Positions 1,145 through 54,668 are shown, counted from the first letter of the stretch. The stretch: DNA of 54,736 nucleotides from Candidatus Bathyarchaeia archaeon (GCA_050014495.1 JBEKDF010000018.1:1-54736); one strand, 5' to 3'. The notes: generated from the sequence alone by a model not told the origin. Program-made: numbers and translations.

Positions 1145-1201
1145 TGAGGGCGCGCGCATCCTTCTACATAATTTGTTATATCCAGCTTGGCCTTTTGATA
1201 C

Positions 1202-2095
1202 ATGTCCAAAATGACGGATCCAGTGATAGTTATACACGGTGGTGCATGGGCTATACCAGATAGACTGGTCGAGGTAAACATCCATGGAGTGGAGGAAGCT
1301 ACAGGAAAGGGGTGGAGCGTCCTAGGGAGAGGCGGATTAGCGCTGGACGCCGTCATGGTGGCCGTGAATTGCCTCGAGGACAACCCGGTGTTTGACGCAG
1401 GTGTAGGCTCAGTACTCACGGAGGAGGGCACGGTCGAGATGGACGCCATGATAATGGACGGCGCTACACTCGGGGCGGGGGCAGTAGCTGGACTATACGA
1501 CATCAGACACCCAATAGAGCTGGCACGCGTAGTCATGGAGAAGACGCCTCACGTTCTAATGATAGGAGAAGGCGCTCGACGACTCGCAGAAAAATATGGG
1601 GTCGAGAAACTGGCACAGAGCAAGCTGGTGACCGATGAGGCCCGCCAAGAGCTCATCGAATGGCTCGAGAAGAAGCGACTCGGTGCCTCCTTTGGACACG
1701 AAACTGTGGGAGCCGTGGCACTCGATGAGAAGGGAAACATCGCAGCGGCCACATCGACTGGTGGCGTAACGGGGAAGCTCGTGGGAAGGGTTGGCGACGT
1801 ACCCATAGTGGGCAGCGGAGGGTATGCCGATAACAAGATCGGGGGAGTCTCATCAACGGGCCACGGGGAGTCCATAATGAAGGTAAACCTCTCGAGACTT
1901 GTCCTCACATACATGGAGGCTGGGAATCCCATACAGGAAGCTGCAGACAAGGCCCTAGCTTATATGAGTCAGCGCGTAGGCGGAAGCGGTGGAGTCGTAG
2001 CCTTAGACACTAATGGAAATGTTGGGCATAGCTACACAACGAAGCGAATGGTCTGGGCTAGCGCGAGAAACGGGAAAATAGAATCAGGCATATAA
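1202..2095 (+). CDS. iaaA: isoaspartyl peptidase/L-asparaginase (type 2, Ntn hydrolase)
   Basis: IHGGAW N-terminus, autocleavage 'ETVGAVALD', 'ATSTGG', 'GRVGDVP', 'STGHGE'. Confidence 0.9.
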   Translation: MSKMTDPVIVIHGGAWAIPDRLVEVNIHGVEEATGKGWSVLGRGGLALDAVMVAVNCLEDNPVFDAGVGSVLTEEGTVEMDAMIMDGATLGAGAVAGLYDIRHPIELARVVMEKTPHVLMIGEGARRLAEKYGVEKLAQSKLVTDEARQELIEWLEKKRLGASFGHETVGAVALDEKGNIAAATSTGGVTGKLVGRVGDVPIVGSGGYADNKIGGVSSTGHGESIMKVNLSRLVLTYMEAGNPIQEAADKALAYMSQRVGGSGGVVALDTNGNVGHSYTTKRMVWASARNGKIESGI

Positions 2096-2284
2096 TCTCA
2101 CTAGAACTAGTCGTCAGTTAAATAATTGACTAAGTGTTCTGATTATCTATTTCAAATCCACAATAATTTGCACGCGCGCAATCGAGGATAATGTGTTTAC
2201 ACTGCGAATTCGAGCGCTTATTCAATAGGATCAGCTATGATATCACTTACAACTTCATAATCTAGGAGAAATAATTATAATGAG

Positions 2285-3715
2285 ATGTCGGATAAGGGAG
2301 ACCCAAAATTAACACTCTTCGACGTCACCAACCTAGTCGTAGGAGCCATAATCGGAGCCGACATATACGTCGCCTCAAGCTTTGGAGCCGCCTACCTCGG
2401 ACCCTCATCGCTACTCGTATGGGCGGCCGCCGGAGTTGTAGCTATAATAATCGCTCTTTGCTTCGCCCAATGTGCGGCCTACTTACCCCGAGTCGGTGGA
2501 CCATACGCTTACGCAAAGGAGGCCTGGGGAATATTTCCGGGATTCATAGTTGGCTGGTCACTCTGGCTAGCAGAATGGATCAGCCTCGCAGTCTTCCCAG
2601 TAGCCTTCCTCAGATACCTATCATTCTTCCAACCAAATATAGACCCCGTTTTCCAGGTCCTCATCAAGACCCTCTTCGTAACCTTCCTAATATTGACTAA
2701 CATCCTAGGCGTGAAAGCCGCCGGTAGAACAAATGACGCCCTCACCATAATCAAACTCGCTCCACTGATTCTCTTCGTAGTGGCTGGCGTGGGATACATA
2801 CTCCTCAACCCCACTACCGCAGTGGAGAACCTCACCCCCTTCGCACCCTTCGGCTACACAAGCTTCGGCTTCACGCTCGTACTAGTCTTCTGGGCTTACG
2901 CTGGTTTCGAGATATCAACAATACCCGCAGATGTCGTGGAGAACCCTGGTCGCGTAATACCCAGAGCAATAGTCCTTGGGATGACCATCGTAACAGTCTT
3001 CTACTTAGCCACAAACTTCGTTCTCTTCGCAGTCAGAACCTCGCCCCAATTAGCAACAGACCTAGCACCACTTGCCTCCGCAACATCCAGCATCCTCGGC
3101 ACAAACTCCCTCCTAGCCATCCTGGGAGGACTAGTCGTTAGCGTTGGCGCACTGATATCAGTCGCTGGATCCGATGAATCGGGAATGATCGGGACATCAA
3201 GACTTGGCTACGCACTCGCAGTAGACGGCTTATTCCCTAAAATCTTCGCCAAGATACACCCAAAGTACAAGACACCATACCTCGCCATAATCATACAGGC
3301 TGCAACCGCCCTCATTGCATCACTCATAGGCAACCTCGGAACCCTTGTGGCCGTCTCCGTCTTTTTCCTAGCCATAGCATATGCTGCTACATGTGCATCA
3401 ATCCTATACTTCCGCAGACGAGATCCGGAACCCGCTTTCCGCCTCAAAGGCGGAATCCTCATACCTATTCTCGGAGTAATCTTCTCAATCTACCTCATTA
3501 CACAGTGCACAACGTCCCAGATCGCCATCGGGCTAATACTACTCGGCCTCGGGGTGCCGATGTATATAGTCTTCACTCCGAAGAAGGAACTAACAATCCT
3601 AAAGGAGGAACTTATAGCCCCTGGTGCTTTAAAGGAAGAAACGATGAAACTGAAGGAGAGATTCCTAGCCCACGCGATCTCGCATTTAAAGGAACTCTTT
3701 GGACACAAAGAATGA
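2285..3715 (+). CDS. APC-family amino acid permease
   Basis: About 12 hydrophobic segments; 'GAIIGADI', 'GGPYAYA', 'WAYAGFE'. Confidence 0.9.
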   Translation: MSDKGDPKLTLFDVTNLVVGAIIGADIYVASSFGAAYLGPSSLLVWAAAGVVAIIIALCFAQCAAYLPRVGGPYAYAKEAWGIFPGFIVGWSLWLAEWISLAVFPVAFLRYLSFFQPNIDPVFQVLIKTLFVTFLILTNILGVKAAGRTNDALTIIKLAPLILFVVAGVGYILLNPTTAVENLTPFAPFGYTSFGFTLVLVFWAYAGFEISTIPADVVENPGRVIPRAIVLGMTIVTVFYLATNFVLFAVRTSPQLATDLAPLASATSSILGTNSLLAILGGLVVSVGALISVAGSDESGMIGTSRLGYALAVDGLFPKIFAKIHPKYKTPYLAIIIQAATALIASLIGNLGTLVAVSVFFLAIAYAATCASILYFRRRDPEPAFRLKGGILIPILGVIFSIYLITQCTTSQIAIGLILLGLGVPMYIVFTPKKELTILKEELIAPGALKEETMKLKERFLAHAISHLKELFGHKE

Positions 3716-3807
3716 TCGAAACGCGGCTCATCAACATCCTTGAAAGAAACCCTGCACACGTCAAATTTTATAAAACCACTCACATAAGAGAATCTGGGAC
3801 ATGGCGA

Positions 3808-3963
3808 ATGATTCTCACACACACGTGTATCATAACAGACGACGTGAAGGGATTGAGCCTATTCTACCAAACCGTCCTAGGGATTAATCCAGTGTTATAC
3901 AGAGAAGATTACTCTGAATTCAACACAGAACGAGGTAACCTCTCAATATGCGCGCGCATATGA
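3808..3963 (+). pseudogene. truncated VOC/glyoxalase-family gene (N-terminal half)
   Basis: MILTHTCIITDDVKGLSLFYQTVLG... is a typical VOC N-terminus; the frame ends at about 51 aa inside the palindrome ATATGCGCGCGCATAT. Confidence 0.65.
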
Positions 3964-3981
3964 AACTAGATTATCTCTTTC

Positions 3982-4383
3982 TCAGATATCTAGACCCATT
4001 CTACTCAGAGACTCGTTGAACCTCTGATACTCTGCTAGAAAATCTTCCCCCTTTTCCGTCACAGAGAAGCAGGAGCCGAGGCGCTCGCAGAAGCCTATAC
4101 GAGTTAGAAAACTTAGGACCCCCATAAGCCGATCATAGGGCATATTGACATGAGCGGCTATACGTGTCAGGCTTGGCCTCCTGTGCTCGGTGAGCTCCTG
4201 ATTGAGTGCGGTGAGTATGTCGTAGTAGATCTCAAACCTATTACGCTTCCTCTGCTTGGTTATAGGCTCAGGACCGTTATCAGTTGACAGTAGATCTAGC
4301 TTAGCCACTCTTGAGTCACGCGTTGAAAATAATCGGATATATTTATTTATAGAAAACGGATTGGCAATTCGTATCAAATACAC
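3982..4383 (-). CDS. archaeal winged-helix transcriptional regulator (true start probably downstream of the ORF start)
   Basis: 'RNRFEIYYDIL...TRIAAHVNMPY...VTEKG' wHTH pattern. Confidence 0.75.
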   Translation of the reverse strand: MYLIRIANPFSINKYIRLFSTRDSRVAKLDLLSTDNGPEPITKQRKRNRFEIYYDILTALNQELTEHRRPSLTRIAAHVNMPYDRLMGVLSFLTRIGFCERLGSCFSVTEKGEDFLAEYQRFNESLSRMGLDI

Positions 4384-10306: not shown

Positions 10307-10312
10307 AAGAAA

Positions 10313-10721: not shown

Positions 10722-11048
10722 GTGACATTTAAAAACGAGACTCAACCAACAAACTGCCCACTATGTGGCAAAAACATGATGATGGTCCATGACCTCAAAG
10801 ATTTCAGCATCCAAATCTGCAACACCCATGGAGTCTTCGTCGTGGATAAACCAACGAACGATACATGGGCCTTGGAGGGATTCGACGACAAGATGGGGCC
10901 AATTAAACGCAAATGGTACGCGATAGATAACTACCGGCCCTTAACACTTAATCAATATAGGGATATGGTGAAGAAGGCTAACCTTAAAAGACTGGAAGAA
11001 AAATCGCGCGCAGCTCAACTGAAAAACAATATGGAAAAAGGAGAGTAG
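10722..11048 (+). CDS. hypothetical protein with putative Zn-binding motif
   Basis: CPLC...CNTH. Confidence 0.5.
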   Translation: MTFKNETQPTNCPLCGKNMMMVHDLKDFSIQICNTHGVFVVDKPTNDTWALEGFDDKMGPIKRKWYAIDNYRPLTLNQYRDMVKKANLKRLEEKSRAAQLKNNMEKGE

Positions 11049-16781: not shown

Positions 16782-16851
16782 AGAGCCTACTAGGTATCAC
16801 GATATTGGGAAGAAACGCATCTATTATCTGATCTGCTTGCGCGCTTTTCTC

Positions 16852-18075: not shown

Positions 18076-18380
18076 GAAACATAGCTCCCTAGCATAGTCC
18101 TAGTAAAGATCCCTATCTTCATGCAATTGTATGATTCAGTCATTTAATTCTTGCCTGAGGATAGCGATAATTTCCCGCGATTTAGGTTCGTGCGCGCAAT
18201 CAGAGTTATCGTGAGTCGAAATAACACAAAACCTGGATCCGTGTGCAGTTGGTATAGGGACCTATCTGATTACCATTTAGGGAAACCAAAGAAATACCTT
18301 GTTTTCAGACCCAAGAATGACGACAATCATATAAGATAACTTTTCTCTCCCACGCACTGAGCTTAATTTTAACTTCTAGC

Positions 18381-22710: not shown

Positions 22711-22921
22711 TCAAAGTTAATGCTGGAAAAGTTACATCCAACATTTCTAGCACACATCTCGACAGCCATCTGCATACTCAACTGCTAAAAATTAGCAATG
22801 CGCGCGCTAAGCGGTACTTATTGATCTTAAATGTGATAAGTTTATGATTCCCATCTATATTTTATGGGTTAAACTTTTAACTCTCTGAAATCTGGATAAC
22901 CTGCATGAGCGAGATCTTTTA

Positions 22922-23729: not shown

Positions 23730-23733
23730 CGAC

Positions 23734-33795: not shown

Positions 33796-34002
33796 GACTC
33801 TTTCTACAACTTTTTAATCTATTATGTCGTTTACAATTGACGTTTTTTCGGTTTTAAGTTCCTTGGACAACCACGGCGCGCGCTCATGTAGAAATCCTGT
33901 TGCCTTTAAGTGATTTTTAAAAATCATTGATGAAGATTGGTAGTGCTCATAAATGAGTGGGATATTACATTTATGAACTTCAAGCAGAGGTAAAAATAAG
34001 CC

Positions 34003-40304: not shown

Positions 40305-40381
40305 GGGATCGTGGTCTAGCTTGGTAAGATTCGTGCCTGGGGCGTACGAGTTCGTGAGTTCAAATCTCACCGATCCCACCA
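40305..40381 (+). tRNA. tRNA-Pro (GGG), intronless, CCA encoded
   Basis: Acceptor stem GGGATCG/CGATCCC, D arm GTCT/AGAT, anticodon arm CGTGC-CTGGGGC-GTACG, T arm GTGAG-TTCAAAT-CTCAC, then ACCA. Confidence 0.95.
40354..40381 (+). repeat. attL (tRNA-Pro 3' end)
   Basis: GTGAGTTCAAATCTCACCGATCCCACCA, identical to 49468-49495. Confidence 0.92.
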
Positions 40382-40385
40382 TTTC

Positions 40386-41315
40386 ATGAACCCACTGCTG
40401 TTATCTGGGGTCTCGGAGCAGAGTTATAATCAGCAGGTTGTCCTGATCCTTGAGCACAGTTTTTGGCTGAAGAAGCAAGGATACAGGGAGTCAACGGTTT
40501 CAACCGCAACACACTCCCTGAAGGCTTTGGCTAAGGGCTGCGACCTGATGAACCCAGAGGATGTTAAGGAGAACATTGCTTTTAGGCAGGTCTCGGAAGC
40601 CCAGAAGGAGAAGCTATGCAGCGTTTATGACAGATACTGTAAACAGCACAGTTTGATCTGGTCCATCCCCAAATACCGAAGGGTTACGAGGCTTCCATAT
40701 GTCCCGAAACAGGACGATATCATTCTTCTGATAAACGCCCTATCCAGAAGGCAGGGCACATTCGTTCAACTCATAATGGAAACGGGAGCTAGGGCGGGAG
40801 AGGTATGGCAACTAAAATGGATCGACATCGATTCAGAGAACAATGCGATAACAATCAACAATCCTGAGAAGAACAGCAATCCCCGAAAACTAAGGGTGTC
40901 GAAAGCCCTGATCGCCAAGCTGAACGCCCTGACCAGAAAATGCCCATGTGTCTTCAAGGTTCAGGAGAAAAGCAACTTCCTGAGTTTCGCAAGGTGCTTC
41001 TATAAGGCTAGGCTTCGGATTGCGGAAGAACTGAAAAACCCCAATATTGACAGGATCAACCTCAAGAGCCTAAGACACTTCAGGGCTAGTCAGATATACG
41101 CCCAAACCAAAGACCTCCTATATACCCAAAGGCAGCTCGGGCATCGATCAATCTCATCAACGATGGTCTACGTGCACCTTACCGAGTTCGAGGAGGATGG
41201 ATTTTTTATTGTCAAGGTTGCAGGGGATTTGAACGAGTTCGTAGGACTGATTGAGAGCGGGTTTGAGTTCATTTCGGATTATGATGGTAAGAAAGTATGT
41301 AGGAAACGGAAGTGA
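40386..41315 (+). CDS. tyrosine recombinase/integrase
   Basis: 'ETGARAGE' (R), 'EKNS' (K), 'KSLRH', 'LGHRSISSTMVYVH' (H, Y); starts 5 bp after the tRNA. Confidence 0.93.
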   Translation: MNPLLLSGVSEQSYNQQVVLILEHSFWLKKQGYRESTVSTATHSLKALAKGCDLMNPEDVKENIAFRQVSEAQKEKLCSVYDRYCKQHSLIWSIPKYRRVTRLPYVPKQDDIILLINALSRRQGTFVQLIMETGARAGEVWQLKWIDIDSENNAITINNPEKNSNPRKLRVSKALIAKLNALTRKCPCVFKVQEKSNFLSFARCFYKARLRIAEELKNPNIDRINLKSLRHFRASQIYAQTKDLLYTQRQLGHRSISSTMVYVHLTEFEEDGFFIVKVAGDLNEFVGLIESGFEFISDYDGKKVCRKRK

Positions 41316-41321
41316 CTGGGC

Positions 41322-41441
41322 TTGAATGATGATTCAATCGTTCAAGGGTTTGTTGAAGGGGTAGGTTTCGCCCTAAAGGTGCTGAGTGTCCTATTCCTTG
41401 TTGGGTTGGCTGTTGTGATCTTCTTTATCATTTTTCATTAA
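41322..41441 (+). CDS. 39-aa single-TM microprotein
   Basis: TTG...TAA reading MNDDSIVQGFVEGVGFALKVLSVLFLVGLAVVIFFIIFH directly after the integrase; below the ORF-track cutoff. Confidence 0.45.
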   Translation: MNDDSIVQGFVEGVGFALKVLSVLFLVGLAVVIFFIIFH

Positions 41442-41489
41442 CTTGAAACGTCCAAATCTTTATAGGAACCTCCAGATAAAATATTCAGT

Positions 41490-42056
41490 ATGGACCCAAC
41501 AGCAATTATCGCTATAGCAATATCATTTCTAAGCATTGTATTCATATTGATAACTCAAGGACCAGATCAAATAACTAAGTTTAGAGAATCGGCAGATACT
41601 GTGAACAGACGTGAAAAAATAAATAGTTGCTTACAAAAAGAACTGATTGAAGAGTTACAAGAAAATAAAGAAAATGGTATCTTCGATTTAGAACCGGATG
41701 GAATAGAAAACAGAGAAAAAATAGATGATTTAGAATATTTCGGATTTACCATTTTTGTTGTGAATAATATCAGCGAAGATATACTAAATAAAATAATGCA
41801 AAACGCAAAAAACGCTCTCAAGAGATTTATTTATTTTAGTTTTGTTGTGACATTAACTTTGGTGATTTATATAAGCACAGATGTAACAAGTATTTTCAAT
41901 AATTTTATGTTAGCAGTTTACGCTGGGTTTGCTTTAGTTCTTGGATACATGATGTATGATAGTACCCGTAAATATTCGAATCTAAAAGAAGACTTCATTA
42001 AACTATACGAAGACCCAACTATCGAAAATGCTAGAGAAATATATTATAAGATATAA
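41490..42056 (+). CDS. hypothetical membrane protein (element cargo)
   Basis: Three TM segments; AT-rich. Confidence 0.65.
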   Translation: MDPTAIIAIAISFLSIVFILITQGPDQITKFRESADTVNRREKINSCLQKELIEELQENKENGIFDLEPDGIENREKIDDLEYFGFTIFVVNNISEDILNKIMQNAKNALKRFIYFSFVVTLTLVIYISTDVTSIFNNFMLAVYAGFALVLGYMMYDSTRKYSNLKEDFIKLYEDPTIENAREIYYKI

Positions 42057-42079
42057 GTATAAAAAGTGAGTATCCACAT

Positions 42080-42874
42080 TCACGCAATGGTTCTATTTTG
42101 AGATTCTCTGTGTCGGGATAATTCCCTTTCTATATCTTTTAATTCTTCAGCAATATCTTTGAGAGACCCTTCAGTTGTGTAGAGTATGTCTTTATATAAT
42201 TCTAAATTTAATATCATTGAATCCTCATATTTTATACCTTCATTATCTTCATAGTTAATTTTCGCATTAAATATTAATGGATATTTCTCGGGAGTTTTCT
42301 TATTTCCCTCATAATAATTTATTGAACCATCAAAAATCTGCTTAATTTCCTTTCCAGCAATCATTGTTTTTATGCCTTGTTCAAATAAATAACCTTTAGA
42401 TAGATTTCTATCGTTAGTATCTATTAATTCAGGTGTAACCTGAAATGTAATATTTTTAGCCAAACTTTTTCCTTCATTTCTTATTACTAGATTGATTATC
42501 GAATGTCCAAAGGGAATATCAAAATCAATAATAATTTCAGGTCGGGACTGAGCTATTCGAGATAATTTCATCTCATCAACAGTCTTGAATGTCAATAATG
42601 CTACCACAAGGGTAGCTAATATCCCAATATTTTGGATTTGATTGGGTATAAGTAACCAAATAAATGCAAATACTATCATATTTAATCCAAATAATAAGTT
42701 AAATAGATTTTCCGATTTTCTATTCTTAAAGTGTATTAATTCCATAACTAAAATGCCTAGCACTATTCCTAGTAGTGTATATATTGCGGACCAAGCAGCT
42801 ACGGGTAAAAGTGCAATTATTTGCTCTATATCAGTCAACTCATTAACCTCTAGCTTAACTTTTTGTCTGAACAA
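42080..42874 (-). CDS. hypothetical membrane protein with a soluble beta domain (element cargo)
   Basis: Three N-terminal TM segments, then 'RP.I.IDF...IRNEG...AKNI'. Confidence 0.65.
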   Translation of the reverse strand: MFRQKVKLEVNELTDIEQIIALLPVAAWSAIYTLLGIVLGILVMELIHFKNRKSENLFNLLFGLNMIVFAFIWLLIPNQIQNIGILATLVVALLTFKTVDEMKLSRIAQSRPEIIIDFDIPFGHSIINLVIRNEGKSLAKNITFQVTPELIDTNDRNLSKGYLFEQGIKTMIAGKEIKQIFDGSINYYEGNKKTPEKYPLIFNAKINYEDNEGIKYEDSMILNLELYKDILYTTEGSLKDIAEELKDIERELSRHRESQNRTIA

Positions 42875-44091
42875 TAAGTATAAAAATCAATCGTTCAACA
42901 TCCCGCCTTATCAAGCCACTTGCGATATCGTTAGTCAATATTGTATGTTCATGTTAATTCTGGGGTGATGCCGGAGGGTAAAATTGAGCCTTATATATTT
43001 TGAATGAATTGGCATAATAATGAGTATTCAAGAAACCATGGTCATAGGGATTAATCATATATGATGGATAGGTTGATATGTGCAGATAGGTTAATCAAGG
43101 AATTGTGCAGTTGATTTAAATTTAATTTATTTCTGATAGGGTGGGAGGTGAGCTAAGGTTTGTGTCCATAGTTTTGATACTTCATTCTTTAAGGTGTCGA
43201 TCTTAGTTCGTAGGGATTGACCAAATAAGCCCTTAAACGGCTCAGATAGGCATTTTTAAGCCCTATTAGACGAACCATTAAATCCCATGAATTGATCGTA
43301 TAAGCTGTATTATCGTATTAATTGGAGAATTAAGCAATATTAACGTCCTAAATCACCAATCCGTAAGAGCTGAGAAAATCAATTAGATAGACACTGATAA
43401 CGCCCAAGTCTAAAGGGTCAAAAATAGCGATGATTTATTTCTGTAACACACTCTTTTATTATATTGAAATCGTCTATCAAAAAATTTATATTTATTTAGT
43501 GTGCCATTATGTATGTGGTAAGTAGAGTGTGCAGGTTACTCTTGACAAATGAGAAAATCACTACTAAACAGCTTAGTAGAAAATAGATTGATAACCAAAA
43601 ACTGTACCTATACCCTTCCTCCAAATCATACATATGAGCCAAACCGGAAATGGTTTTCGGAAAGAAGTTGGCGACATACCGCCAAACACATACGAATTCC
43701 TAGGAAAATGATCATAAGAGGAACTTAGGAATTATCTGGAAAATCTCATACCATCAAATCATTATCTGGAATTAACTAAGCCTAAGTTCTATCCACCTTT
43801 CTGGTCTCAGAATAATATGCATTTCATTGGAAGGGGTAGGGGGGATATAATATACATATATATAATCTACATATATTAACTTCCCTACGCAGCCTTAGTG
43901 TCTGAGCGTTAAGGCTATAGGAATTAGCATCTTATCTTATTATTTTATAATTTTATATCCATTGTTTTTCACTATTCTCACCTTTCTAACTAACTCACGC
44001 TAAGACAACAAAGTTTGTCCACATCTAGAGGGAGAAGGGATAATGTTTCTTGTCGAGAAGCCTCATAAACGCTGAACATGACCCACTAACC

Positions 44092-44967
44092 ATGAGCGAA
44101 GAAGACGACACCTACTCAACGATTTTCACAGCCCTCAAACATCCTATCAGGAGGAACATTCTGAGGCGTCTCAGTATCTCATCAGCAACTTACACAGAGT
44201 TGCTTAACGAGCTAGGCATTGAGAACGGGCTGCTAAACTATCACATCGAAAGCTTACATGAACTCATACGCAAGAGGGAAGACGGGACATACACACTGTC
44301 AGAGTTTGGACTAGCAGGGTTGAACCTAATAAAAAGGATCGAAGATCCAGTCCCAACCCAAACCGATAGGTACCATAGAAACCGCTCTCTTCTACTTCAA
44401 GCTCTAAGTGTACTGCTAATAATCGCCCTTTCAGTAAGTAGTTGGTCATTTTATTCAAGTAATCAGGTTCTCAAATCCGAGCTGAGTAATCAGCAGAGTC
44501 AAATCGAGACGATACAAACTAACATTCAAGCTTACACATCGCTCTTCGACTCAAACATCACCCCGCCAGTATCAAAGATCGAAGCAATAGCCAAGGCTCT
44601 TTCAAGCGATGGATGGAACTCAACAACTCTCAGAGGGTTGGTGATTGAAGCTTCACTGACTTACGTAAGATTCTTTGTAGCAGATAATGGAGGTATAGGC
44701 TTCCAGTTCCTAAATAGCGTCACTAAACCTATGAATGATTACTCTCCCAAAGCCGAGTATAATGTCACAGAAACAGGAGTTTATCCACCGATCAAGGGGA
44801 CGGTTTGGCATAGGTATGTATGGACTGTCATCGTTCATGAGTCAGGTAATTTTAGGGGAATTCCACCTCCCGGTTTGTATTGGGTGGATGCCAGCACGGG
44901 AGAGCTGTTCAAGGATACCGGAATTGGGATACGGGCAGTTCCTCCTTTCAACCCGTTAACTCATTAG
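44092..44967 (+). CDS. ArsR-like wHTH plus TM plus extracellular domain protein
   Basis: 'IFTALKHPIRRNILRRL...LNYHIESL...YTLSEFG', then a TM segment; ATG at 44092 preferred. Confidence 0.8.
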   Translation: MSEEDDTYSTIFTALKHPIRRNILRRLSISSATYTELLNELGIENGLLNYHIESLHELIRKREDGTYTLSEFGLAGLNLIKRIEDPVPTQTDRYHRNRSLLLQALSVLLIIALSVSSWSFYSSNQVLKSELSNQQSQIETIQTNIQAYTSLFDSNITPPVSKIEAIAKALSSDGWNSTTLRGLVIEASLTYVRFFVADNGGIGFQFLNSVTKPMNDYSPKAEYNVTETGVYPPIKGTVWHRYVWTVIVHESGNFRGIPPPGLYWVDASTGELFKDTGIGIRAVPPFNPLTH

Positions 44968-45006
44968 CCCGTAGACAATTAGGAAATCTGATACAATGAG
45001 TCTACC

Positions 45007-45237
45007 TTACCAAATCCTCATGGGTTCGACCCTTTTCATAGCTTCATGGAGTGAATCGCCCTGAAGCTGGTCCCGCTTTTCACAAAACAATAGATAAATC
45101 GCCTTCAATTTTTCTAATGAATCGGTCTCGGCAAATTGCACATTGTATTTTTTGAGCTGCCTCTTATAGTAGCCAATAGCCACCCTTTCACGCTGCCTAA
45201 TCTTATTTTCTTCATCTGAATATTTTTTAGGTTTCAT
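45007..45237 (-). CDS. small basic hypothetical protein
   Basis: 76-aa ORF co-oriented with the upstream operon. Confidence 0.55.
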   Translation of the reverse strand: MKPKKYSDEENKIRQRERVAIGYYKRQLKKYNVQFAETDSLEKLKAIYLLFCEKRDQLQGDSLHEAMKRVEPMRIW

Positions 45238-45244
45238 GTTTTAA

Positions 45245-45967
45245 CTAATTTTTCCACACTAAGCCCCTACGATCAAATGGCTTATTTTCAATAGAATATC
45301 TAAAGTTGAATGGGGGACCATCAAAAACCCCATTATCAGTTAATCTATCTTTCAATCTATCATTCAATTCTATTCTATTATCATTTATTCTATCAATACT
45401 ATATATTCTATTAATCAATTTATCTATATATCTAATATTACAATTAACTAACGTACTACGATTATACTTATTATATTTAACTACCTTATTTTTTATGAGA
45501 AATAGTAAACATTTTATGTGCTTATGCAATTCCAATTTGATTAATTCCTGATTATCTATAGTGACCTGTTGTGATAGTTGCCATAATATTATACCTTTAG
45601 ACCTTAGATATTTTTTACACTCTTTAGAGACTTTGGCACTTGTTACCAATATGCGAATTTCCCCGCCCAGCTTATTATCAGTAAATGGGAGTTCGTGTTT
45701 AGACTCAAACCATTGAGGGGTCAGGTACCATCCATTAGGGTTAAAGTTTTTTACCTCTATGCATATAGGATAATTATATCCCTCAATTCTCAAGCGTATA
45801 TCTTCGCCTCTTCCCTTGTTTACTCTATAGGAATCTAGACCTTGATCACTATTATTTTTCATATATGTGATATTATCAAAGTTTTCTCTCAGTGCATTAA
45901 CTAACACACTTTCACCTAGAAACCCTTTAAGATTCCAATCTTGGTTTACACTTGATATTATCAACAT
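45245..45967 (-). CDS. PD-(D/E)xK nuclease-fold protein
   Basis: 'GFLGE', 'GEDI', 'IEVKN' catalytic pattern; low-complexity C-terminal tail. Confidence 0.65.
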   Translation of the reverse strand: MLIISSVNQDWNLKGFLGESVLVNALRENFDNITYMKNNSDQGLDSYRVNKGRGEDIRLRIEGYNYPICIEVKNFNPNGWYLTPQWFESKHELPFTDNKLGGEIRILVTSAKVSKECKKYLRSKGIILWQLSQQVTIDNQELIKLELHKHIKCLLFLIKNKVVKYNKYNRSTLVNCNIRYIDKLINRIYSIDRINDNRIELNDRLKDRLTDNGVFDGPPFNFRYSIENKPFDRRGLVWKN

Positions 45968-46026
45968 ATTTTATCTTCCTCCCCTATGCCTAATTTTCTT
46001 TTGGGCTTTTATTGACATATCTAAAC

Positions 46027-46656
46027 TTAACCGCTTACTCCGAGTTTTTCGGAGCAGTTAGGGCAGGTGCTGTGCTGCTGAACGTCAACCATCTGACCAC
46101 AGGAAACACATTGCACCATGTAGAATGGTTCGTTTCTTGCAGAACGGATTTTGAGATCGCCAATCGCCAACTCCTTCAATTCATCCAGCTTCTTCTTGGC
46201 TTCCACATCGCCCTTACGGACCCTCGCAAACAAGTCACTGATCCCTTCAGACATGGTATCGTAGACCATATCCTGTGGGCTTTTGCCGTAGTCGTTTAGC
46301 TTTGTGACACCTCCGCCACGCTTGCTGTCAGCCCCTGCATTCTTCTCAGCCCGACCCTGAAGGAATTCTGGGATATCCGACTGCTTCATTTCCCCACGTT
46401 TGATCTTCTCCTGTAATAGCCCCTCTGTAATGGTCTTTAGCTTGGTCGAATTCTCCTTTTCCTTATCAAGCTGATTCTGCAAGTCCTGCTCTATCTGAGT
46501 CCTATCGAGAACTATGTTGAGGTTTGAATTGCTTGTGCCCTCCCACTTATCGTTGATATACTTATAATCTATGGTTTTGCCGTCAACTAATAGGGATGTA
46601 ACGCTGCCGTCCTTTGGTGCGTTCTCTAGTTGCTTCATAATATCGTTAGTATTCAT
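46027..46656 (-). CDS. coiled-coil protein with C-terminal Zn ribbon
   Basis: Helical charged core; CVSC...CPNC. Confidence 0.65.
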   Translation of the reverse strand: MNTNDIMKQLENAPKDGSVTSLLVDGKTIDYKYINDKWEGTSNSNLNIVLDRTQIEQDLQNQLDKEKENSTKLKTITEGLLQEKIKRGEMKQSDIPEFLQGRAEKNAGADSKRGGGVTKLNDYGKSPQDMVYDTMSEGISDLFARVRKGDVEAKKKLDELKELAIGDLKIRSARNEPFYMVQCVSCGQMVDVQQHSTCPNCSEKLGVSG

Positions 46657-47015
46657 TGTTCATCTTTTTCCTCGTTCCAAATATTGATTCCTGCTTCACT
46701 CTTTGTAGCCTCTTCCTCTATCTCTTCCTTCGCTTTTTCTTCGATTATATCTGATTTGAGGTCTATGATGCCTTCTGTGGCGGTCCAGTACCAATCAGGT
46801 CTCGATAGAATTTCATTCAATGTCTCACCTGACCTCAACTTTTCCTGAAGTGCCTTTATCTCTTCAGCATGTTCATCTAAAAAGGCAGACTGCATAGCAG
46901 GAACATATGGGCTTATCAATCTCCATATAGGTTTCCTCGATGCAACTGATATCATCTTTAGCCTCTCGTAAAGCTGTTCAGGCATAGTGACTACTTTCCA
47001 TCCCGTTGGATTCAT
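46653..47015 (-). CDS. ribbon-helix-helix-like DNA-binding protein
   Basis: N-terminal 'WKVVTMPEQLYERLKMIS....PIWRLI' fits a beta-alpha-alpha RHH pattern. Confidence 0.55.
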   Translation of the reverse strand: MNPTGWKVVTMPEQLYERLKMISVASRKPIWRLISPYVPAMQSAFLDEHAEEIKALQEKLRSGETLNEILSRPDWYWTATEGIIDLKSDIIEEKAKEEIEEEATKSEAGINIWNEEKDEQ

Positions 47016-47138
47016 TTCTTAACTGGTATATATAGTAACTATACATCTATAAAAGTCTTATCAATAAATCATATGTTACAATCTTATGATAACGCTTTTA
47101 ACTAACATCAACTATATATCTATATAGTAAGTTAAGAT

Positions 47139-48041
47139 ATGACAAACTTTAATGTTAATGAGACTTTGCTCTCTTCGGCTTTACCTTCAGAACTCCTTCC
47201 ATTTTTACTTTGGAATGAAATATTAGTTGGAATTAAAGCTGCAAGGCAGGTCTTCGGTGAGGCTATAACCATGAGTTCCGTCCTAATCGGTGAGACTGGT
47301 TCAGAAATCTCGATGCCGGTATTGACCAGCGGATTCAGCGTTTCAAGCATCAGCGAATCTGACTTGGATACAAGCGGATACGTTGCTCAGACACCAACAA
47401 TGGACCACTTACAGGTTTTGGTCGGTGATCAGATTTATCTTGCATTTTCCATCTCGGATATCTTGAAAGAGAACAGTCCGAAATACGACTATGTCGCAAT
47501 CTTGCTCAGGGAAGCCGGAAGGACCATCGGTGAGTATACCGATTCCTCAATCCGTGACACCCTGTGGGCTGGTTACGGCAACTCGGTTGGTGCGACTGTT
47601 GCTGGTAAGCTCGCATTCGATGACATCGTGAACTTGCTCCAATTAGAGAAAGAGGACAAGTTCTACCCAGATGATAACACACCTTTCCTCTATATCTCAC
47701 CTGAAGGCGAAGCTGACCTATTGAAAGACAGTCGCTGGATCAACAGCCATAGATACGCAGTCGGCTCAGTGGGCAACATGGGAAGCGACACAGCGGGAGA
47801 ACAGGACATTTATTGCGATTGCCGTGTCCGTGTCACAGAGACCATGAAGGCGGGTTACGCAATGATTGTCTTCAAGAGTCCAGACGACACAGACCCATAC
47901 TCAATATTCGCTTGGAAGCGTCCACTAACCGTCAAGACTGAGAGATCAGAAATGTACGGAAGACAGGCTTGGTACATCTCCGAGAGATGGGGAACAAAGG
48001 TCATGCAGCCCAATTCTGTGGGCTTGATCTCAAATTGCTAA
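47139..48041 (+). CDS. HK97-fold major capsid-like protein
   Basis: 300 aa; E-loop-like 'G.EISMPV...ISES', spine helix '..AGRTIGEYTD..I', 'FDDIVNL', 'LYISPE..ADLLKD', C-terminal 'ERWGTKVMQPNSV'. Confidence 0.7.
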   Translation: MTNFNVNETLLSSALPSELLPFLLWNEILVGIKAARQVFGEAITMSSVLIGETGSEISMPVLTSGFSVSSISESDLDTSGYVAQTPTMDHLQVLVGDQIYLAFSISDILKENSPKYDYVAILLREAGRTIGEYTDSSIRDTLWAGYGNSVGATVAGKLAFDDIVNLLQLEKEDKFYPDDNTPFLYISPEGEADLLKDSRWINSHRYAVGSVGNMGSDTAGEQDIYCDCRVRVTETMKAGYAMIVFKSPDDTDPYSIFAWKRPLTVKTERSEMYGRQAWYISERWGTKVMQPNSVGLISNC

Positions 48042-48072
48042 ATTTTCCACCCACGTTTCCTAAACTGAAACA

Positions 48073-48227
48073 GGCATAAATCATAGGCAAGCAGGATGCC
48101 CGTCTGGTAACAGCGGGAGTGGGTTTCATTCCCCACCGACAGTCCCGCTTCACCAAACACTGGCTTCAGACATGTTACCGGTGAGCCGGGATAGGGTTCC
48201 TAACCTTCCCCTTACCCGGCACTTTTT
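48073..48227 (+). ncRNA. GC-rich multi-stem structured element downstream of the capsid gene, ending in a hairpin plus T-tract
   Basis: Nested stems CTGGTAACA/TGTTACCGG, AGCGGGA/TCCCGCT, GTGGG/CCCAC, and GCCGGG/CCCGGC followed by TTTTT. Confidence 0.45.
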
Positions 48228-48247
48228 ATATGTAATATTTTAGACAA

Positions 48248-49027
48248 TCATGGCGTGTTGAGTTGGGGTAGAGTCGGGGGTTTTATTTTAACTGATATAC
48301 AGCCATTACGTTTTATTGACCAAGCATTTAATGTTTGAGAAATTGCTAATAATTCAGTTGATTCTAAATATGTTCTTAGCGGGGATATATTAACGCCAAC
48401 ATTTTGTTTTTCATATATAAGAAATTGATTTTTTTCCATTTGAGGAACTCCATAAACGTCTAAACCCTTTAATGTTCCCATAAAAGTTATACCTTTTTCC
48501 TTTTTTATTTCAGGACCATATTTAGGAAAAATCATATATTCATCCATTGTTTTCAGGTCGGGATTAACAAAGCTAGTCAATATAGTATCTGCATTTACAC
48601 CATGACCGTTTAGAGATTCTATAGCCTTTTTTCCTTGATCGAATTCTTCTAATGTCCATTCCACTTCTCTAGATCTTGAAAGCAAATCTATAATTTTTAG
48701 AATCTCTTCCAAACTCCATTTATTAGATATATTATGTATTATATATTTTTGCATACGTTCATCTTTGTATGACTCCTCCCAATTACGAATTGCATATTTT
48801 TTTTGCATTTTTACTGATTCTTGGGTAAGCATTCTCGGAGGAGAAATACGATAAATAACCTCCTGACCTGTGCCTTCAATGCTATCATTTACAAGCTCAT
48901 ATATTTGATCAGTATTTTCTACATTAAAATTACACACTCCAAAATATTCATTAAATTTCCTAAATTCACCGATTTTTTTTACAAGTGATTCATTTATTTG
49001 ACTAACAAGTGTTTCCATCTTATTCAC
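48248..49027 (-). CDS. hypothetical protein, possibly a divergent HK97/encapsulin-like fold
   Basis: 'AIESL...GVNADTIL...GTLKGLDVYGVP....QFLIYEK' resembles an HK97 A-domain pattern. Confidence 0.5.
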   Translation of the reverse strand: MNKMETLVSQINESLVKKIGEFRKFNEYFGVCNFNVENTDQIYELVNDSIEGTGQEVIYRISPPRMLTQESVKMQKKYAIRNWEESYKDERMQKYIIHNISNKWSLEEILKIIDLLSRSREVEWTLEEFDQGKKAIESLNGHGVNADTILTSFVNPDLKTMDEYMIFPKYGPEIKKEKGITFMGTLKGLDVYGVPQMEKNQFLIYEKQNVGVNISPLRTYLESTELLAISQTLNAWSIKRNGCISVKIKPPTLPQLNTP

Positions 49028-49033
49028 CCATAA

Positions 49034-49315
49034 TCATTTTTTATTCCTTGTTTCAATATCTTGTATTTTAGTCATTATATCATTCATTAAAAATGCGATT
49101 CTAATTAGCAATTGATTTTGTATGAGCATATCAGCGTATATATCTCTATTATCAAAAGAGGATGAATCTAATTCGCCTTTTTTCACTTTAGACCAAAGAC
49201 CATTTAAATTTTCTAATTCGGGTATAATTTCATCGTTTAACGCTTTTTTCATCAAGGGAATTTGAGGGTTAGACATGTTTAAATGAAAACCGGGGAGGTT
49301 AAAGAACGTATTCAT
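49034..49315 (-). CDS. small helical hypothetical protein
   Basis: ORF ending 6 bp upstream of the 48248-49027 gene. Confidence 0.5.
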   Translation of the reverse strand: MNTFFNLPGFHLNMSNPQIPLMKKALNDEIIPELENLNGLWSKVKKGELDSSSFDNRDIYADMLIQNQLLIRIAFLMNDIMTKIQDIETRNKK

Positions 49316-49467
49316 TAGTTAATTGAAAAACGGAGTCTTCTGGAAAGTGAAATTTCTTCACCATTCTTATTTCAGAAAACCTTCTTATCTCAGATTGAGT
49401 TTCTTCTAAATGGTCATCATGTTACCGATTGACCGACACGAGGAAATCACTCCGAGTGGGGGTCACG

Positions 49468-49495
49468 GTGAGTTCAAATCTCACCGATCCCACCA
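49468..49495 (+). repeat. attR (duplicated tRNA-Pro 3' end)
   Basis: 28/28 identity to 40354-40381. Confidence 0.92.
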
Positions 49496-49503
49496 ACATA
49501 TTA

Positions 49504-49515
49504 ACCGATCCCACC
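49504..49515 (+). repeat. second partial att copy
   Basis: ACCGATCCCACC repeated 8 bp after attR. Confidence 0.65.
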
Positions 49516-49641
49516 TAGAGTTGATCGGGTTTTCTGAAGAGTCTGACACCATCAACCTCAGTGACATATTCGTAGCCCTTTGCGATGAGCTCCTTCGCCT
49601 GATCTACGGTTGATGCTTCTCGGCAGTCGAAGTGTGTCTGT
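49515..49641 (-). pseudogene. C-terminal stub of a second tyrosine integrase
   Basis: 'FDCREASTVDQAKELIAKGYEYVTEVDGVRLFRKP' aligns by eye with the tail of the intact integrase, 'FIVKVAGDLNEFVGLIESGFEFISDYDGKKVCRKR'. Confidence 0.7.
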
Positions 49642-50429
49642 GCGCGCGCCTCGATGATGACTCCTATGTTCAAACTAGGATTGCTCAGTATCAGGCGTCT
49701 CTCGATGAGAGAGCTTTCACAATAGCGAAGAGTTTCGTAACTGCGAAGATTGAGAGTCAAAACATTATTCTGCGTAAGTATGGGCTTGAGCCTCACCTCG
49801 ACGACTTCAGGGATGCAATCGATAGGAGTGAGGCGAAGAGCCTCGAATTATTAAGGCGGAGATTAACAGGAATCGAGGGGAAGCATACCCAGCGATATTA
49901 CAAGCAGATTTTCGGCCTCTTCCCTGAGAAGCTTAGACCTGAGAAGAGGGAGGGATTCATGACCTACGATGGCGTAAATAATCTGTTTAACTTATCCTAT
50001 GAGATTCTCGCGTGGAAGATTCACAAGGCCCTCGTTAGGGCGAAACTTGAGCCGTACCTCGGTTTCCTTCACAGTAACCAGATGGCTAAACTCAGCTTGG
50101 TCTGTGACTTTCAGGAGCTTTATCGCTATCTGATCGACGACTTCCTGATTCAATACAGCCAAAAAATAAGCAAGAAAGATTTCAAGATGAAGACCGAGTC
50201 TGCGAGTCACGGAAAGAAGGGCAAACGTGAATATCTGACAGACTCCGAAACTAAGACTCTGCTCGATGAGCTTAACATGTTCTTCGAGTCGATAGTTGAA
50301 GTGAAGCGGATTAGAAACGGTGAGCATCAGACACTTGAGACACTAATCAATGAGGAGGCCCTCTTATTCGCGAAGTATCTCAGAGGAGAATTTAGGAGAT
50401 GGGTTCCTAGAGTGCCAAGTGGGATCTAA
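49642..50429 (+). pseudogene. cas1: solo Cas1 (casposase-like), N-terminally truncated
   Basis: 'TRIAQY', 'AKIESQ', catalytic E in 'GIEG', 'DGVNNLFNLSY', H in 'PYLGFLH', 'SLVCDFQELYR'; the N-terminal beta domain is missing. Confidence 0.85.
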
Positions 50430-52372: not shown

Positions 52373-52400
52373 GATGAAAATCAAGCAACAATCTTCCTGA

Positions 52401-52433
52401 GTTAGAGTCAGGTTGAAGTTTAGATAAGGCTAT
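52401..52433 (-). repeat. conserved ~33-bp unit of the paralog array (minus-strand copy)
   Basis: Reverse complement ATAGCCTTATCTAAACTTCAACCTGACTCTAAC; similar to 53586-53618 and 54240-54272. Confidence 0.7.
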
Positions 52434-53454: not shown

Positions 53455-53585
53455 CTATTTTTCACCATTTTTTTCGAATATTTTAAGATTCATTATTATT
53501 CTATAATAAAAGAATCTCGAATTTATAACAAACAACTAAGTATATAACATTTTCATTAATATTCGTAAATATTTGTATATGGAAC

Positions 53586-53618
53586 ATAGCCTTATCCTCA
53601 CTTCCACCTGAGTGTAAT
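53586..53618 (+). repeat. conserved ~33-bp unit upstream of a paralog
   Basis: ATAGCCTTATCCTCACTTCCACCTGAGTGTAAT; CTTATC lies 41 bp before the TTG start. Confidence 0.7.
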
Positions 53619-53631
53619 CCAGTGACTTGTA

Positions 53632-54243
53632 TTGGTCGATCTAGTTACGCTTCAGTCAATGGCGTATATCGCTCAAGTAGTCGGAGTAGCTGGAACACTC
53701 ATAGCCGCGTTCATCGCGGTGAGAAGCTATACCAACGTGAACAAGCGAACCGAAGAATCCAAGAAGAAGGAGCAGGAGACACGCGACAGGGAACTCGAGA
53801 CCAGAAGGCTACAGCTACTCACAAGCTATAGTGAGCGCCTCTTCAACACGGAGGGCAGCCTCGATTTTTAGGAGCTCATGAACATGCAGTGGAGTGATTG
53901 GGACGACTTCGAGAAGAAGTATGGAAGCGACTTCAACCTCCACAACGGGGCGATTAGGCTCAAGGTCTTCTTCACGTGGGACCTTCTCGGGAGCCTGCTA
54001 CGCGAGAAGGCTGTGGATGCTGAGACCCTGTACAAGCTGAGCTTCCACATGGTCATCTTCCTCTGGATGAAGTTCAAGGGGTATCTGGATTATGAGCGGG
54101 AGCATTACTTCGGGAAGGACTTTCTTGTCGACTTCGAGTACCTTGCTCAGGAGATGCTCAGGATCAAGATGAGGAATGATCCCACCTACAAGGTTCCTGA
54201 GAACTTCATTAGCTATCTTCAGAATAATCAAGCCGTTCAATAA
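53632..54243 (+). pseudogene. DUF4760-like paralog interrupted by one in-frame TAG (53869-53871)
   Basis: ORFs 53632-53871 and 53878-54243 are in the same frame: ...SLDF*ELMNMQWSDWDDFEKKYG... Confidence 0.8.
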
Positions 54244-54272
54244 TCTTATCCTCACTTCTAGCTGACTCTAAT
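54240..54272 (+). repeat. conserved ~33-bp unit upstream of a paralog
   Basis: ATAATCTTATCCTCACTTCTAGCTGACTCTAAT; overlaps the previous stop codon; CTTATC lies 40 bp before the ATG. Confidence 0.7.
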
Positions 54273-54284
54273 TAGTGATGATTA

Positions 54285-54668
54285 ATGGTTGATGCGCAGA
54301 CGATTGGAGTATTGGTGACGGTGGCAAGCGTGACGGTAGCAGCGGTGTACTACATGTTCACCCTACGCACAAACCCGAGAAACTACAAGGCCACACTCGA
54401 CACACGCCAGGCACAGCTCTTCATGCAGCTATTCGACCGATTCAGCGGATCAGAGTTCGCCCTCAACTACGGCAAGATCCGCTACGAGATACTACCCAAG
54501 CTGAACAACAGCCCAGAGGAGCTGAACAAGTTCATCTACCAGAACACAAATGAGAAGTTCAACCCCGAGGTGTTCCTACCCTTCCACCAGCTGACGATGT
54601 TCTTCGACGGCGTCGCGCGCGCTGCCTTGTCCCGAAATTACCCCGATATTGGTTTTAAATGGTCTTAA
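54285..54668 (+). pseudogene. DUF4760-like paralog, C-terminally truncated
   Basis: 'DTRQAQLFMQ...FFDGV', after which similarity to the paralogs stops at CGCGCGCGC (54614-54622). Confidence 0.7.

Follow-up and report, generated by a model that had tools for sequence, protein, structure and literature searches.

Short runs of alternating G and C mark the sites at which DNA has been deleted or fused in an uncultured peat archaeon, Candidatus Bathyarchaeia, and in many of its relatives. These self-complementary (GC)n tracts lie at observed deletion and fusion junctions, are mostly non-parental, plateau in length at 7-10 nt and show the same profile in a genome that lacks the insertion sequence (IS) associated with them elsewhere. 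They are likely fillers written by host end-joining, into which a family of IS5/IS1182-like elements likely then inserts. The interpretation in a preliminary description of this DNA is partly supported. Its core, namely that (GC)n is either written or used for joining by some process and that the tracts are breakpoints, holds; among the options listed there, non-templated filling during end-joining fits best.

Within the window, by which we mean the whole stretch analysed (54,736 nt; JBEKDF010000018.1:1-54736), the octamer GCGCGCGC occurs exactly where first described, at 1150, 3950, 22800, 23723, 33876, 49642 and 54615, in maximal runs of 8, 8, 8, 9, 8, 8 and 9 nt, the last site belonging to the run 54614-54622. 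The shorter runs described at 2173, 11005, 25279 and 30430 (7 nt each) and at 16839 and 18192 (6 nt each) are likewise present, together with further 6-mers at 547, 7373 and 16146 absent from that list. The original estimate was of about 0.3 octamers by chance; Markov simulations (100 each at order 1 and order 3) give means of 0.23 and 0.47 runs of at least 8 nt, with a maximum of 2, against the seven seen. Runs of at least 6 nt number 16, compared with 6.1 (order 1) and 9.9 (order 3) expected, but since the simulated maxima are 14 and 19 single 6-mers are not significant; that at 16146 sits within an intact gene whose ortholog spans the site. No run of at least 6 nt was found in the 9.1-kb element (40354-49506), as had been noted, an absence which is weak because only about 2.7 would be expected at window density. 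Counted across the genome, GCGCGCGC is the most over-represented 8-mer; run lengths fall sharply at 11 nt, while phase and length vary. An Rfam search of the window matched a tRNA and nothing else. The features are as follows.

1150-1157: (GC)4 tract between GNAT and asparaginase genes; homology to relatives starts at 1157-1168
2173-2179: 7-nt intergenic tract; no parent traced at base level
3808-3949, + strand: 5' end of a VOC/glyoxalase-like gene (family assigned by eye), with 47 codons left of the 123 in G002
3950-3957: (GC)4 tract at the VOC cut, with 0 parental letters and no G/C run at this point of the intact gene
11005-11011: 7-nt tract in place of the 3' end of ORF 10722-11048; G005 and G011 orthologs match only to 11004
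16839-16844: 6-nt tract at a synteny boundary; spanned by run X18
18192-18197: 6-nt intergenic tract, could be background; spanned by run X18
22800-22807: (GC)4 tract, left edge of a 7.6-kb block; spanned by run X9
23541-23722, - strand: amidohydrolase-like remnant (C-terminal), which begins at the tract; identified by eye from the translation
23723-23731: 9-nt tract; an X18 contig matches to 23727, then has other sequence
25279-25285: 7-nt tract between amidohydrolase and UbiA genes; spanned by run X13
30430-30436: 7-nt tract at the PAS-GAF gene cut, 1 parental letter; spanned by run X11
30437-31403, - strand: 5' part of the PAS-GAF sensor; in G002 the gene runs on to encode a full histidine kinase
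33876-33883: (GC)4 tract at a deletion that leaves 67 nt where G002 has ~660 nt
49515-49641, - strand: C-terminal remnant of a tyrosine integrase; homologs ~35-53% identical
49642-49649: (GC)4 tract that joins what is left of the integrase to what is left of cas1; cas1 supplies at most 2 of its letters
49650-50429, + strand: cas1, 5'-truncated
54285-54613, + strand: 5' part of a DUF4760-like gene; G002 continues
54614-54622: 9-nt tract, 2 parental letters; an element end directly adjoins
54623-54736, + strand: terminal 114 nt of an IS5/IS1182-like element, probably non-autonomous; the contig breaks here

Five genes had been thought to be cut at tracts. Four of them trace to intact homologs, the match ending at the tract edge for the VOC (3950), PAS-GAF (30430) and DUF4760-like (54614) genes and on the cas1 side of 49642, and the amidohydrolase-like remnant begins at its tract; a sixth altered gene lies at 11005. 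In alignments to intact homologs the tract is mostly absent, 0-2 letters within it being parental at the four traced genes. The missing halves of the cut genes were not found elsewhere in the assembly, where only distant paralogs occur. To the right of 22800, G002 has, instead of the 7.6-kb block, about 1.6 kb comprising the rest of a sensor kinase gene, and X18 contigs diverge at 22793 and 22854, around this tract; at 33876 the X18 tract carries two extra letters at its centre.

The non-parental character of the filler extends beyond the window. When 77 edges of runs of at least 8 nt were traced in G000, the parent was found to supply 0-2 letters at 64 of them, so that plain microhomology joining, another of the options first listed, does not fit; six of the seven runs traced on both sides hold 6-8 non-parental letters. 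Eight of the 77 edges share at least five letters, and some junctions can therefore be read as reuse of an old tract; the deleted parts hold tracts in three cases. Edges sharing no letter at all make up 26 of 77 in G000 against a null of 57%, a mild excess of 1-2-letter matches, and 23 of the 36 non-collinear edges in the IS-free genome G079 against a null of 64%, with no excess. Strain-level joints in other sequencing runs have GC letters between the arms, and 455 bp of the transposase ORF have been swapped for a 10-nt run. In G079 a pure 15-nt run takes the place of 20 ordinary letters, its flanks being 99% alike, and runs of 11 and 10 nt stand for 24 and 946 letters; no third copy polarises the direction of the short replacements. 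In one case the G079 filler is built of GC and TA units, and over the 4-5 letters that immediately adjoin a run the mismatch to the parent, otherwise about 9%, climbs to 22-38%; both observations imply a filler longer than the pure run.

Because the 54614 tract adjoins an IS end and the IS clade flanks GCGCGC, the reading considered first was that the tracts are scars of this element. Excision would have left behind either its target duplication or GC ends that it carries, and the junctions would stem from deletions alongside. The transposase is a single ORF of 332 aa carrying DUF772 and DDE_Tnp_1 in a profile search, which scores below all NCBIfam cut-offs (94.9 bits against 270 for the IS1182 model NF033551, whose family protein has ~490 aa; 93.6 bits against 140 for the best IS5 model, NF033581, covering residues 16-303), and its profile matched no solved structure. 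The element shares the IS5 traits of a single ORF, short terminal inverted repeats and a short fixed target duplication. By title, 73 of 78 loci of the clade belong to Bathyarchaeia, across which nearly all element ends consist of GCGCGC plus the inverted repeat. The preliminary description did not mention such a tract-targeting clade. In G000, 64 element ends adjoin runs of at least 5 nt, and it is at ends of this kind that 33 of the 184 contig termini fall; ends identical to that at 54623-54736 occur on contigs C12, C24, C27, C33 and C40, and the G016 ortholog of the MFS gene likewise ends beside a tract and an IS end (cf. 16839). IS-bearing genomes are mostly tract-rich (all five in one comparison), and IS movement at deletions without duplication is described in the accessible part of PMC11708052.

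The details of insertion can be read in more than one way. An exact 4-nt direct repeat flanks 63 of 69 complete copies, a count firm only where a variant letter repeats (L243) because GCGC is palindromic; one copy has the non-consensus ACGC on both sides. Assuming a 4-bp target duplication, which we favour, 53 of the 69 copies reconstruct to tracts of 7-10 nt, and the alternative of a terminal GC with a 2-bp duplication fits 64 of 69 equally well. A fixed 6-bp duplication fails in 19 of 69. The G002 element in L028 lies within an imperfect repeat of ~200 bp, 134 nt of it exact, which may or may not be a long target duplication. The letter preceding IS-flanking tracts is the one that also precedes tracts free of the IS in the same host, namely T in G000 and A in both G109 and G185, G016 departing from this in a small sample; two G109 copies have a common variant right flank, so flank letters could travel with the element.

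That the tracts originate as IS scars is nevertheless improbable. The single-contig genome G079 has the same profile (130, 168, 106, 114 and 19 runs of 7, 8, 9, 10 and 11 nt) and yielded no match to the transposase profile and no repeated ends at tract edges, its four TIR-like flanks being at the chance level of 2.7. Six further tract-rich genomes of other families lack a transposase match (tract-rich genomes without one include G098, G099, G128, G089 and G122), although collapsed repeats may be missing from the MAGs without the IS, of which G079 (86% complete) and G021 alone are single contigs; conversely, G069 has eight transposase matches but three nine-mers. The mostly CG-phase tracts of G007 cannot arise from duplication of GCGC, parents lack GCGC at the junction, and 27 collinear pairs contain no deletion-free footprint. 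No empty-site joint for the C43 element was seen in the patchy contigs of four runs, which carries no weight, and a TSD-GC-TSD pattern shows no general excess for other purine-pyrimidine 4-mers. Excision footprints are thus rejected, since tracts occur without the element and do not contain the parental target; the transposon option first listed applies to the element end at 54623 and not to the tracts themselves. The IS likely inserts into tracts afterwards.

Z-DNA is a hot spot for deletion, and the tracts might arise otherwise, by slippage or oligonucleotide capture, and then serve as fragile Z-DNA or hairpin sites at which successive deletions stop. Old tracts are indeed reused as breakpoints (X18 at 23727 and at position 6442 of C43; the G079 pairs L315/L311 and L318/L286), so a component of fragility or IS cutting remains, and runs longer than 10 nt may be unstable, which could account for their scarcity. 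As an account of the tracts, however, we regard this reading as distinctly unlikely: in two G079 replacements the lost segment has no G/C run of at least 5, GC-type repeats are enriched 6.9-fold as against 1.2-1.7-fold for AT- and AC-type repeats, and the palindromic extension of flanks expected from hairpin opening does not exceed the shuffled expectation for 8- and 10-nt runs, so that hairpin-opening (P-nucleotide) scars were rejected.

A site-specific recombinase had also been proposed. Such an enzyme, or a cassette system, shuffling gene modules with the tracts as crossover cores could draw on the existence of tract-bounded blocks, such as 22800-30430 in the window and, on C51, a second TBP gene with a 9-nt run on either side, and on the tyrosine integrases and cas1 copies common in these genomes. 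This reading is very unlikely, being largely refuted by the non-parental origin on both sides: the site is absent from parents, no conserved arms or flanks were found at tracts beyond IS ends, junctions fall at arbitrary positions within genes, and length and phase vary. An HIP1-like mutational ratchet, turning near-matches into perfect GC runs in place, scarcely deserves credence, for although several paralog pairs differ by 1-3 substitutions within an equal-length run (one has three changes in 9 nt), decay explains them equally well, about 80% of runs lie outside ORFs and only 13 of 143 traced edges run on collinearly.

The tracts are not an assembly artefact. Mapping across junctions was carried out with contigs from four other sequencing runs (best 32 of 196 pieces), which span 16839, 18192, 22800, 25279, 30430 and 33876; 23723 is spanned by none listed, and the test covered neither 1150, 3950, 49642 nor 54614. 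Assembly does break near many tracts, but the breaks are collapsed IS copies, and with six tracts spanned in independent runs and a trait that is lineage-specific across 171 genomes, including single-contig ones, assembly or amplification chimeras have practically no chance of being the explanation.

If the runs are end-joining fillers, an identical short tail would be added to both broken ends, consisting of (GC)n preceded by AT or TA as is typical of the lineage. Because (GC)n is self-complementary, any two tailed ends could pair and be sealed although their native sequences have 0-2 letters in common, the limited tail length setting the cap near 10. The IS would then cut the tract centre with a probable 4-bp duplication, sparing intact genes, and its activity, or the tract's own instability, would turn old tracts into recurrent breakpoints and so produce the mosaic gene order of the window.

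The search for the writing enzyme rejected several candidates. Ku is present in 10 of 25 genomes searched, including the tract-poor G001, G010, G066, G113 and G156, and was not found among these 25 in the tract-rich G079, G098, G099, G128, G021, G089 and G122, so Ku/LigD non-homologous end-joining does not track the tracts. The PolX thumb domain occurs in 60 of 171 genomes, tract-poor ones included, and was not found in that search in G098, G103, G128, G122 and G089, while RVT_1 occurs in two of 30 genomes, both tract-poor; neither PolX nor reverse transcriptase tracks the trait, nor do extra primase-family genes. PriS-family matches are present in all five genomes examined, tract-rich and tract-poor. 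A motif screen of the 972 proteins common to G079 and G000 retained 23 as possible polymerases, ligases or nucleotidyltransferases, nine of which were scanned with Pfam; this brought no conspicuous shared operon to light. Within the end-joining model the host primase PriSL, acting by terminal addition and slippage, is a tentative candidate; as PriSL is universal, a lineage-specific change must be assumed. It is also possible, if somewhat doubtful, that several Bathyarchaeia lineages possess a dedicated repair activity which adds one and the same palindrome, (GC)n with an AT or TA cap and with a protein or small RNA as template, to any end and so makes ends mutually sticky. Such universal sequence-programmed joining would also capture foreign DNA, and the transposon clade, together with an IS110 hyperparasite, would have evolved to live in the scars.

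How broken DNA is rejoined without Ku in most archaea is an open question, and a stereotyped scar provides a countable, lineage-resolved record of end-joining in one of the most abundant groups of uncultured archaea. Copy numbers are 40-512 in 15 of the genus's 17 genomes, among them the present one, and since the range overall is from 0 to more than 500 per genome, gene-by-trait profiling could reveal the enzyme. Self-complementary tailing of arbitrary ends, if true, would be new enzymology and a possible cloning tool, and a transposon clade targeting repair scars a new kind of safe-harbour targeting. We found no literature on these tracts or this IS clade in a search with subscription journals mostly outside it.

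Among known systems, the fillers and N-nucleotides of TdT, Pol theta and LigD also place non-parental letters between resected ends with little homology, but theirs are random or copied from nearby DNA, whereas here the pattern is fixed and self-complementary with lineage-typical caps. Integrons and other site-specific systems have a conserved site in both parents, which the tracts lack. Cyanobacterial HIP1 is similarly a hyper-abundant 8-bp GC-rich palindrome of patchy distribution, as far as the available text of PMC4390886 and PMC5861425 describes it, but is a fixed octamer spread through coding DNA, while our runs, found at junctions and mostly outside ORFs, have neither a fixed length nor a fixed phase. 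The element resembles IS1182 (e.g. IS1272, PMC5678879) and IS5 in its single DUF772 and DDE_Tnp_1 ORF, terminal inverted repeats, non-autonomous derivatives and preference for palindromic targets; IS1272, however, replaces 22-30-bp inverted repeats without duplication (PMC5678879), as against a (GC)n target and probable 4-bp duplication here. A further parallel is primase-promoted microhomology end joining (pp-MMEJ) by Saccharolobus PriSL, which favours G:C pairs and which in the accessible portions of PMC12019639 and PMC3333859 resembles the route proposed here in being archaeal and Ku-independent, with terminal addition, annealing via 2-4 G:C pairs and small G/C-biased insertions. Its insertions are there mostly of 1-2 bp and the in-vitro products of PriSL are G/A, G-rich runs (PMC3333859), in contrast to the stereotyped alternating 7-10 nt found here at natural deletions of 20 bp to kilobases, in which the primase is a candidate participant.

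The alternating G/C tracts of the window are a real phenomenon. Runs of at least 8 nt occur there seven times, as compared with 0.23-0.47 in Markov simulations, and every tract position listed in the preliminary description is correct. The genome-wide background check that it proposed bears out the enrichment: under an order-4 model GCGCGCGC, the octamer counted at seven window positions, is present in 512 copies against ~74 expected and is the most over-represented 8-mer of the genome, the enrichment of ATATATAT and ACACACAC being only 1.3-fold and 1.7-fold. Two genomes are referred to throughout.

C18 (the window): one contig of the 3.1 Mb, 92-contig genome G000
G079: a relative in the same class, one contig of 1.98 Mb, ~40% GC, examined whole

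The genes of the window are archaeal in appearance and the sequencing runs containing it are mostly from peat; on these grounds, and from the titles of loci with a related transposase (below), we take G000 to belong to Bathyarchaeia. Maximal alternating G/C runs in G000 number 1901 at 5 nt, 481 at 6, 186 at 7, 192 at 8, 144 at 9, 111 at 10, 5 at 11, 4 at 12 and three longer, a profile with a plateau and then a cliff past 10 nt; the drop beyond 10 nt recurs in relatives. The tracts are also largely intergenic, as had been suggested, since 78-88% of 7-10-nt runs fall outside ORFs vs 15% of 4-nt runs (simple ORF caller, at least 100 aa, 82% cover). Within the genus the copies of GCGCGCGC per genome range from 1 to 512, and the trait is unevenly spread over 171 genomes of the class, being high in parts of the family of G000 and in three other families. 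Both phase and flank letters depend on lineage: T(GC)nA in G000, T(CG)5A in G007 and A(GC)5T in G098, G099 and G079. A tract-poor member of the genus, G001 (L348-L353), has a much lower GC content (33% over 116 kb), and its sole copy of GCGCGCGC adjoins the remnant of an insertion sequence (IS).

The proposal that tracts coincide with points at which genes are cut is upheld for four of the five genes named. Homology of the VOC gene ends at 3947, the intact gene in the relative G002 having 123 codons and no G/C run at the site; the PAS-GAF match ends at 30436, beyond which G002 encodes a full histidine kinase (1 letter shared); the cas1 boundary lies at 49648-49650 in three loci (0-2 letters shared); and the match of the DUF4760-like gene ends at 54615 (2 letters shared). 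On the integrase side of 49642 the tract codes Ala-Arg-Ala, and four homologs (35-53% identity) carry different residues there. For the amidohydrolase, the remnant (23541-23722) was identified only by visual inspection; contigs of an independent sequencing run, X18, agree 5 letters into the tract and then differ, as expected if the gene there is intact and happens to match over 5 letters, or if the partner is a different one. Additionally, the match of ORF 10722 to intact homologs ends at a tract edge (11004), and at 33876 the window retains 67 nt vs ~660 nt in G002. Contigs from other runs cross six window tracts.

Several neighbouring features deserve mention. Truncated cas1 genes are numerous (49650-50429 in the window, besides many loci of G000, G002, G011 and G016), several being cut at tracts or IS ends. 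A second TATA-binding-protein gene (C51 7545-8462, labelled by eye) is exactly flanked by two 9-nt runs and is 87% alike to C10 46736-47643; it is a captured gene, sealed on either end. A 9.1-kb element (40354-49506) is integrated at tRNA-Pro (40305-40381). It has direct repeats of 39 nt, encodes a tyrosine integrase and gives a weak capsid-family match at 47139-48041, its right end being followed by a second integrase remnant. A second dispersed repeat (52397-52433, 53586-53618 and 54240-54272), unmatched in an Rfam search, stands beside DUF4760-like genes; its 21-nt core is matched 154 times genome-wide with at most 3 mismatches.

How, then, do the tracts arise? We favour the view that they would be written as filler rather than left as scars by the IS5/IS1182-like elements whose ends adjoin them, because the parents are without the run, deletions gain runs, and the trait and the IS are separable. 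Scarring was our initial reading, and the five IS-bearing genomes compared are all tract-rich, which both models predict; three tests nevertheless favour writing. Firstly, 103 of 130 free edges (without an adjoining IS end) with a traceable homolog share 0-2 letters with the parent, only 13 further edges being collinear; under stricter criteria the figure is 64 of 77, and among runs traced from both sides six of seven contain 6-8 non-parental letters. Secondly, deletions in transposase ORFs replace 455 bp by a 10-nt run and 316 bp by a 9-nt run. In G079 a paralog pair with flanks 99% alike carries a pure 15-nt run in place of 20 ordinary letters, others exchange 24 letters for an 11-nt run and 946 for 10, and one filler consists of GC and TA units. 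Strain joints in the runs X11 and X4 likewise have GC letters between the arms, albeit both involve repeats, such that a paralog may have been the real parent, and three old tracts lie in the X11 gap. Thirdly, a transposase profile matched 11 of 25 genomes, with no match in G079, G099, G128, G098, G089, G122 and G148 despite their 40-508 nine-mer windows, while G069 has 8 matches but 3 such windows; most IS-free genomes are fragmented, which weakens a clean split. G079, searched whole, has 130 runs of 7 nt, 168 of 8, 106 of 9, 114 of 10, 19 of 11 and 16 of 12, and the 784 tract flanks of its first 920 kb revealed no repeated ends.

An IS end that recurs on five further contigs comes directly after the tract at 54614, and in G000 64 such ends adjoin runs of at least 5 nt (the final 8 positions having the consensus RYGCGCGC), a count which requires a run and to which ~8 real-looking ends with shorter runs or an intervening IS110 could be added. 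Of 184 contig ends, 33 break at IS ends. Complete copies span ~1.0-1.5 kb, with a single ORF of ~330 aa containing DUF772 and DDE_Tnp_1; GCGCGC plus inverted repeat forms the ends even across lineages only 30-40% identical, and 73 of 78 related-transposase loci are titled Bathyarchaeia or Bathyarchaeota. Targets were reconstructed for 69 complete copies, nine loci being set aside by hand (IS110 interrupts two, four run off their contig, two lack clear ends and one carries a long repeat). Exact direct repeats flank 63 copies at a length of 4 nt and 50 at 6 nt; in G109, ACGC stands on either side of one copy, and its sister has GCGC and ACGC. Rebuilt with a 4-bp duplication, the targets measure 7 nt (6 copies), 8 (23), 9 (13), 10 (11), 11-14 (9) and at most 6 (7), a distribution of the same shape as that of free tracts; alternatively, 64 of the 69 fit an element that ends in GC and duplicates 2 bp. 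The letter preceding IS-flanking runs agrees with the one before free runs of the same genome, mostly T in G000 (34/46 and 344/552, respectively) and mostly A in G109 (11/12 and 17/22) and G185 (8/8 and 12/16); in G016 the two disagree (12 and 12 cases).

IS110-family copies lie exactly between the GC run and the IS5-like inverted repeat (C17 57461-58774, C48 5777-7090; also L012 and L154), and four further IS110 left ends in G000 are preceded by GCGC; IS110 looks to be targeting the end of the IS5-like element. At C79 7080-7543, C34 18636-19053 and C76 5878-7242 there are non-autonomous derivatives, of which one contains a helix-turn-helix-like ORF, as well as a copy bearing a pRiA4b ORF-3-like passenger gene. 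A G002 copy (L028 1249-2680) sits inside a ~200-bp imperfect direct repeat, with a tract at one end only.

Some breakpoints, by sequence comparison, are old tracts: at 8 of 77 edges the homolog has at least 5 letters in common with the run, two deletions in G079 end at runs within the lost segment, and X18 diverges from G000 at 23727 and at C43 6442. Probably, tracts are created by writing, and renewed breakage proceeds via IS cutting or instability.

Mechanistically, one activity may put an identical tail on both DNA ends. Identically tailed ends could pair only if the tail were self-complementary, and (GC)n pairing would be strongest. A tail (AT or TA)(GC)n of variable starting register would account for the partly non-parental cap letters and the 0-2-letter homology, and its bounded length for the cliff past 10 nt; mismatch to the parent rises from ~9% to 22-38% over the 4-5 flank positions next to the run. 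A hairpin-opening signature, looked for at tracts, is absent. Ku, PolX, reverse transcriptase and extra primase-family genes have distributions without match to the trait. By analogy, PriSL would be the strongest remaining named candidate for the writer. In Saccharolobus it repairs breaks independently of Ku, using terminal transfer and then annealing over 2-4 G:C pairs (PMC12019639, PMC3333859), and synthesis by archaeo-eukaryotic primases ends at unit lengths, e.g. 7 or 8 nt (PMC8076596); the available text of these three papers reports no alternating products. In G000, Ku, LigD-type polymerase and ligase genes are clustered at C3 64209-67463, so that this genus has what looks like a full NHEJ operon, and a second ATP-dependent DNA ligase (C22 12670-14295) is common to G000 and G079 (L301 8775-10379; 52% identical).

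Our literature search found no paper on these tracts, and the word Bathyarchaeia is absent from the available part of an archaeal IS survey (PMC13343696). The present analysis adds an IS-free control at whole-genome scale, a target reconstruction from 69 copies and negative profiles for three candidate enzyme families. In its working, tract formation would resemble filler-type end joining. The IS is similar to elements of the IS1182 and IS5 families, its transposase scoring below the cut-offs of both, and is distinct from IS1272, whose insertion replaces inverted repeats and makes no duplication (PMC5678879); IS movement has been linked to pre-existing breaks (PMC11708052).
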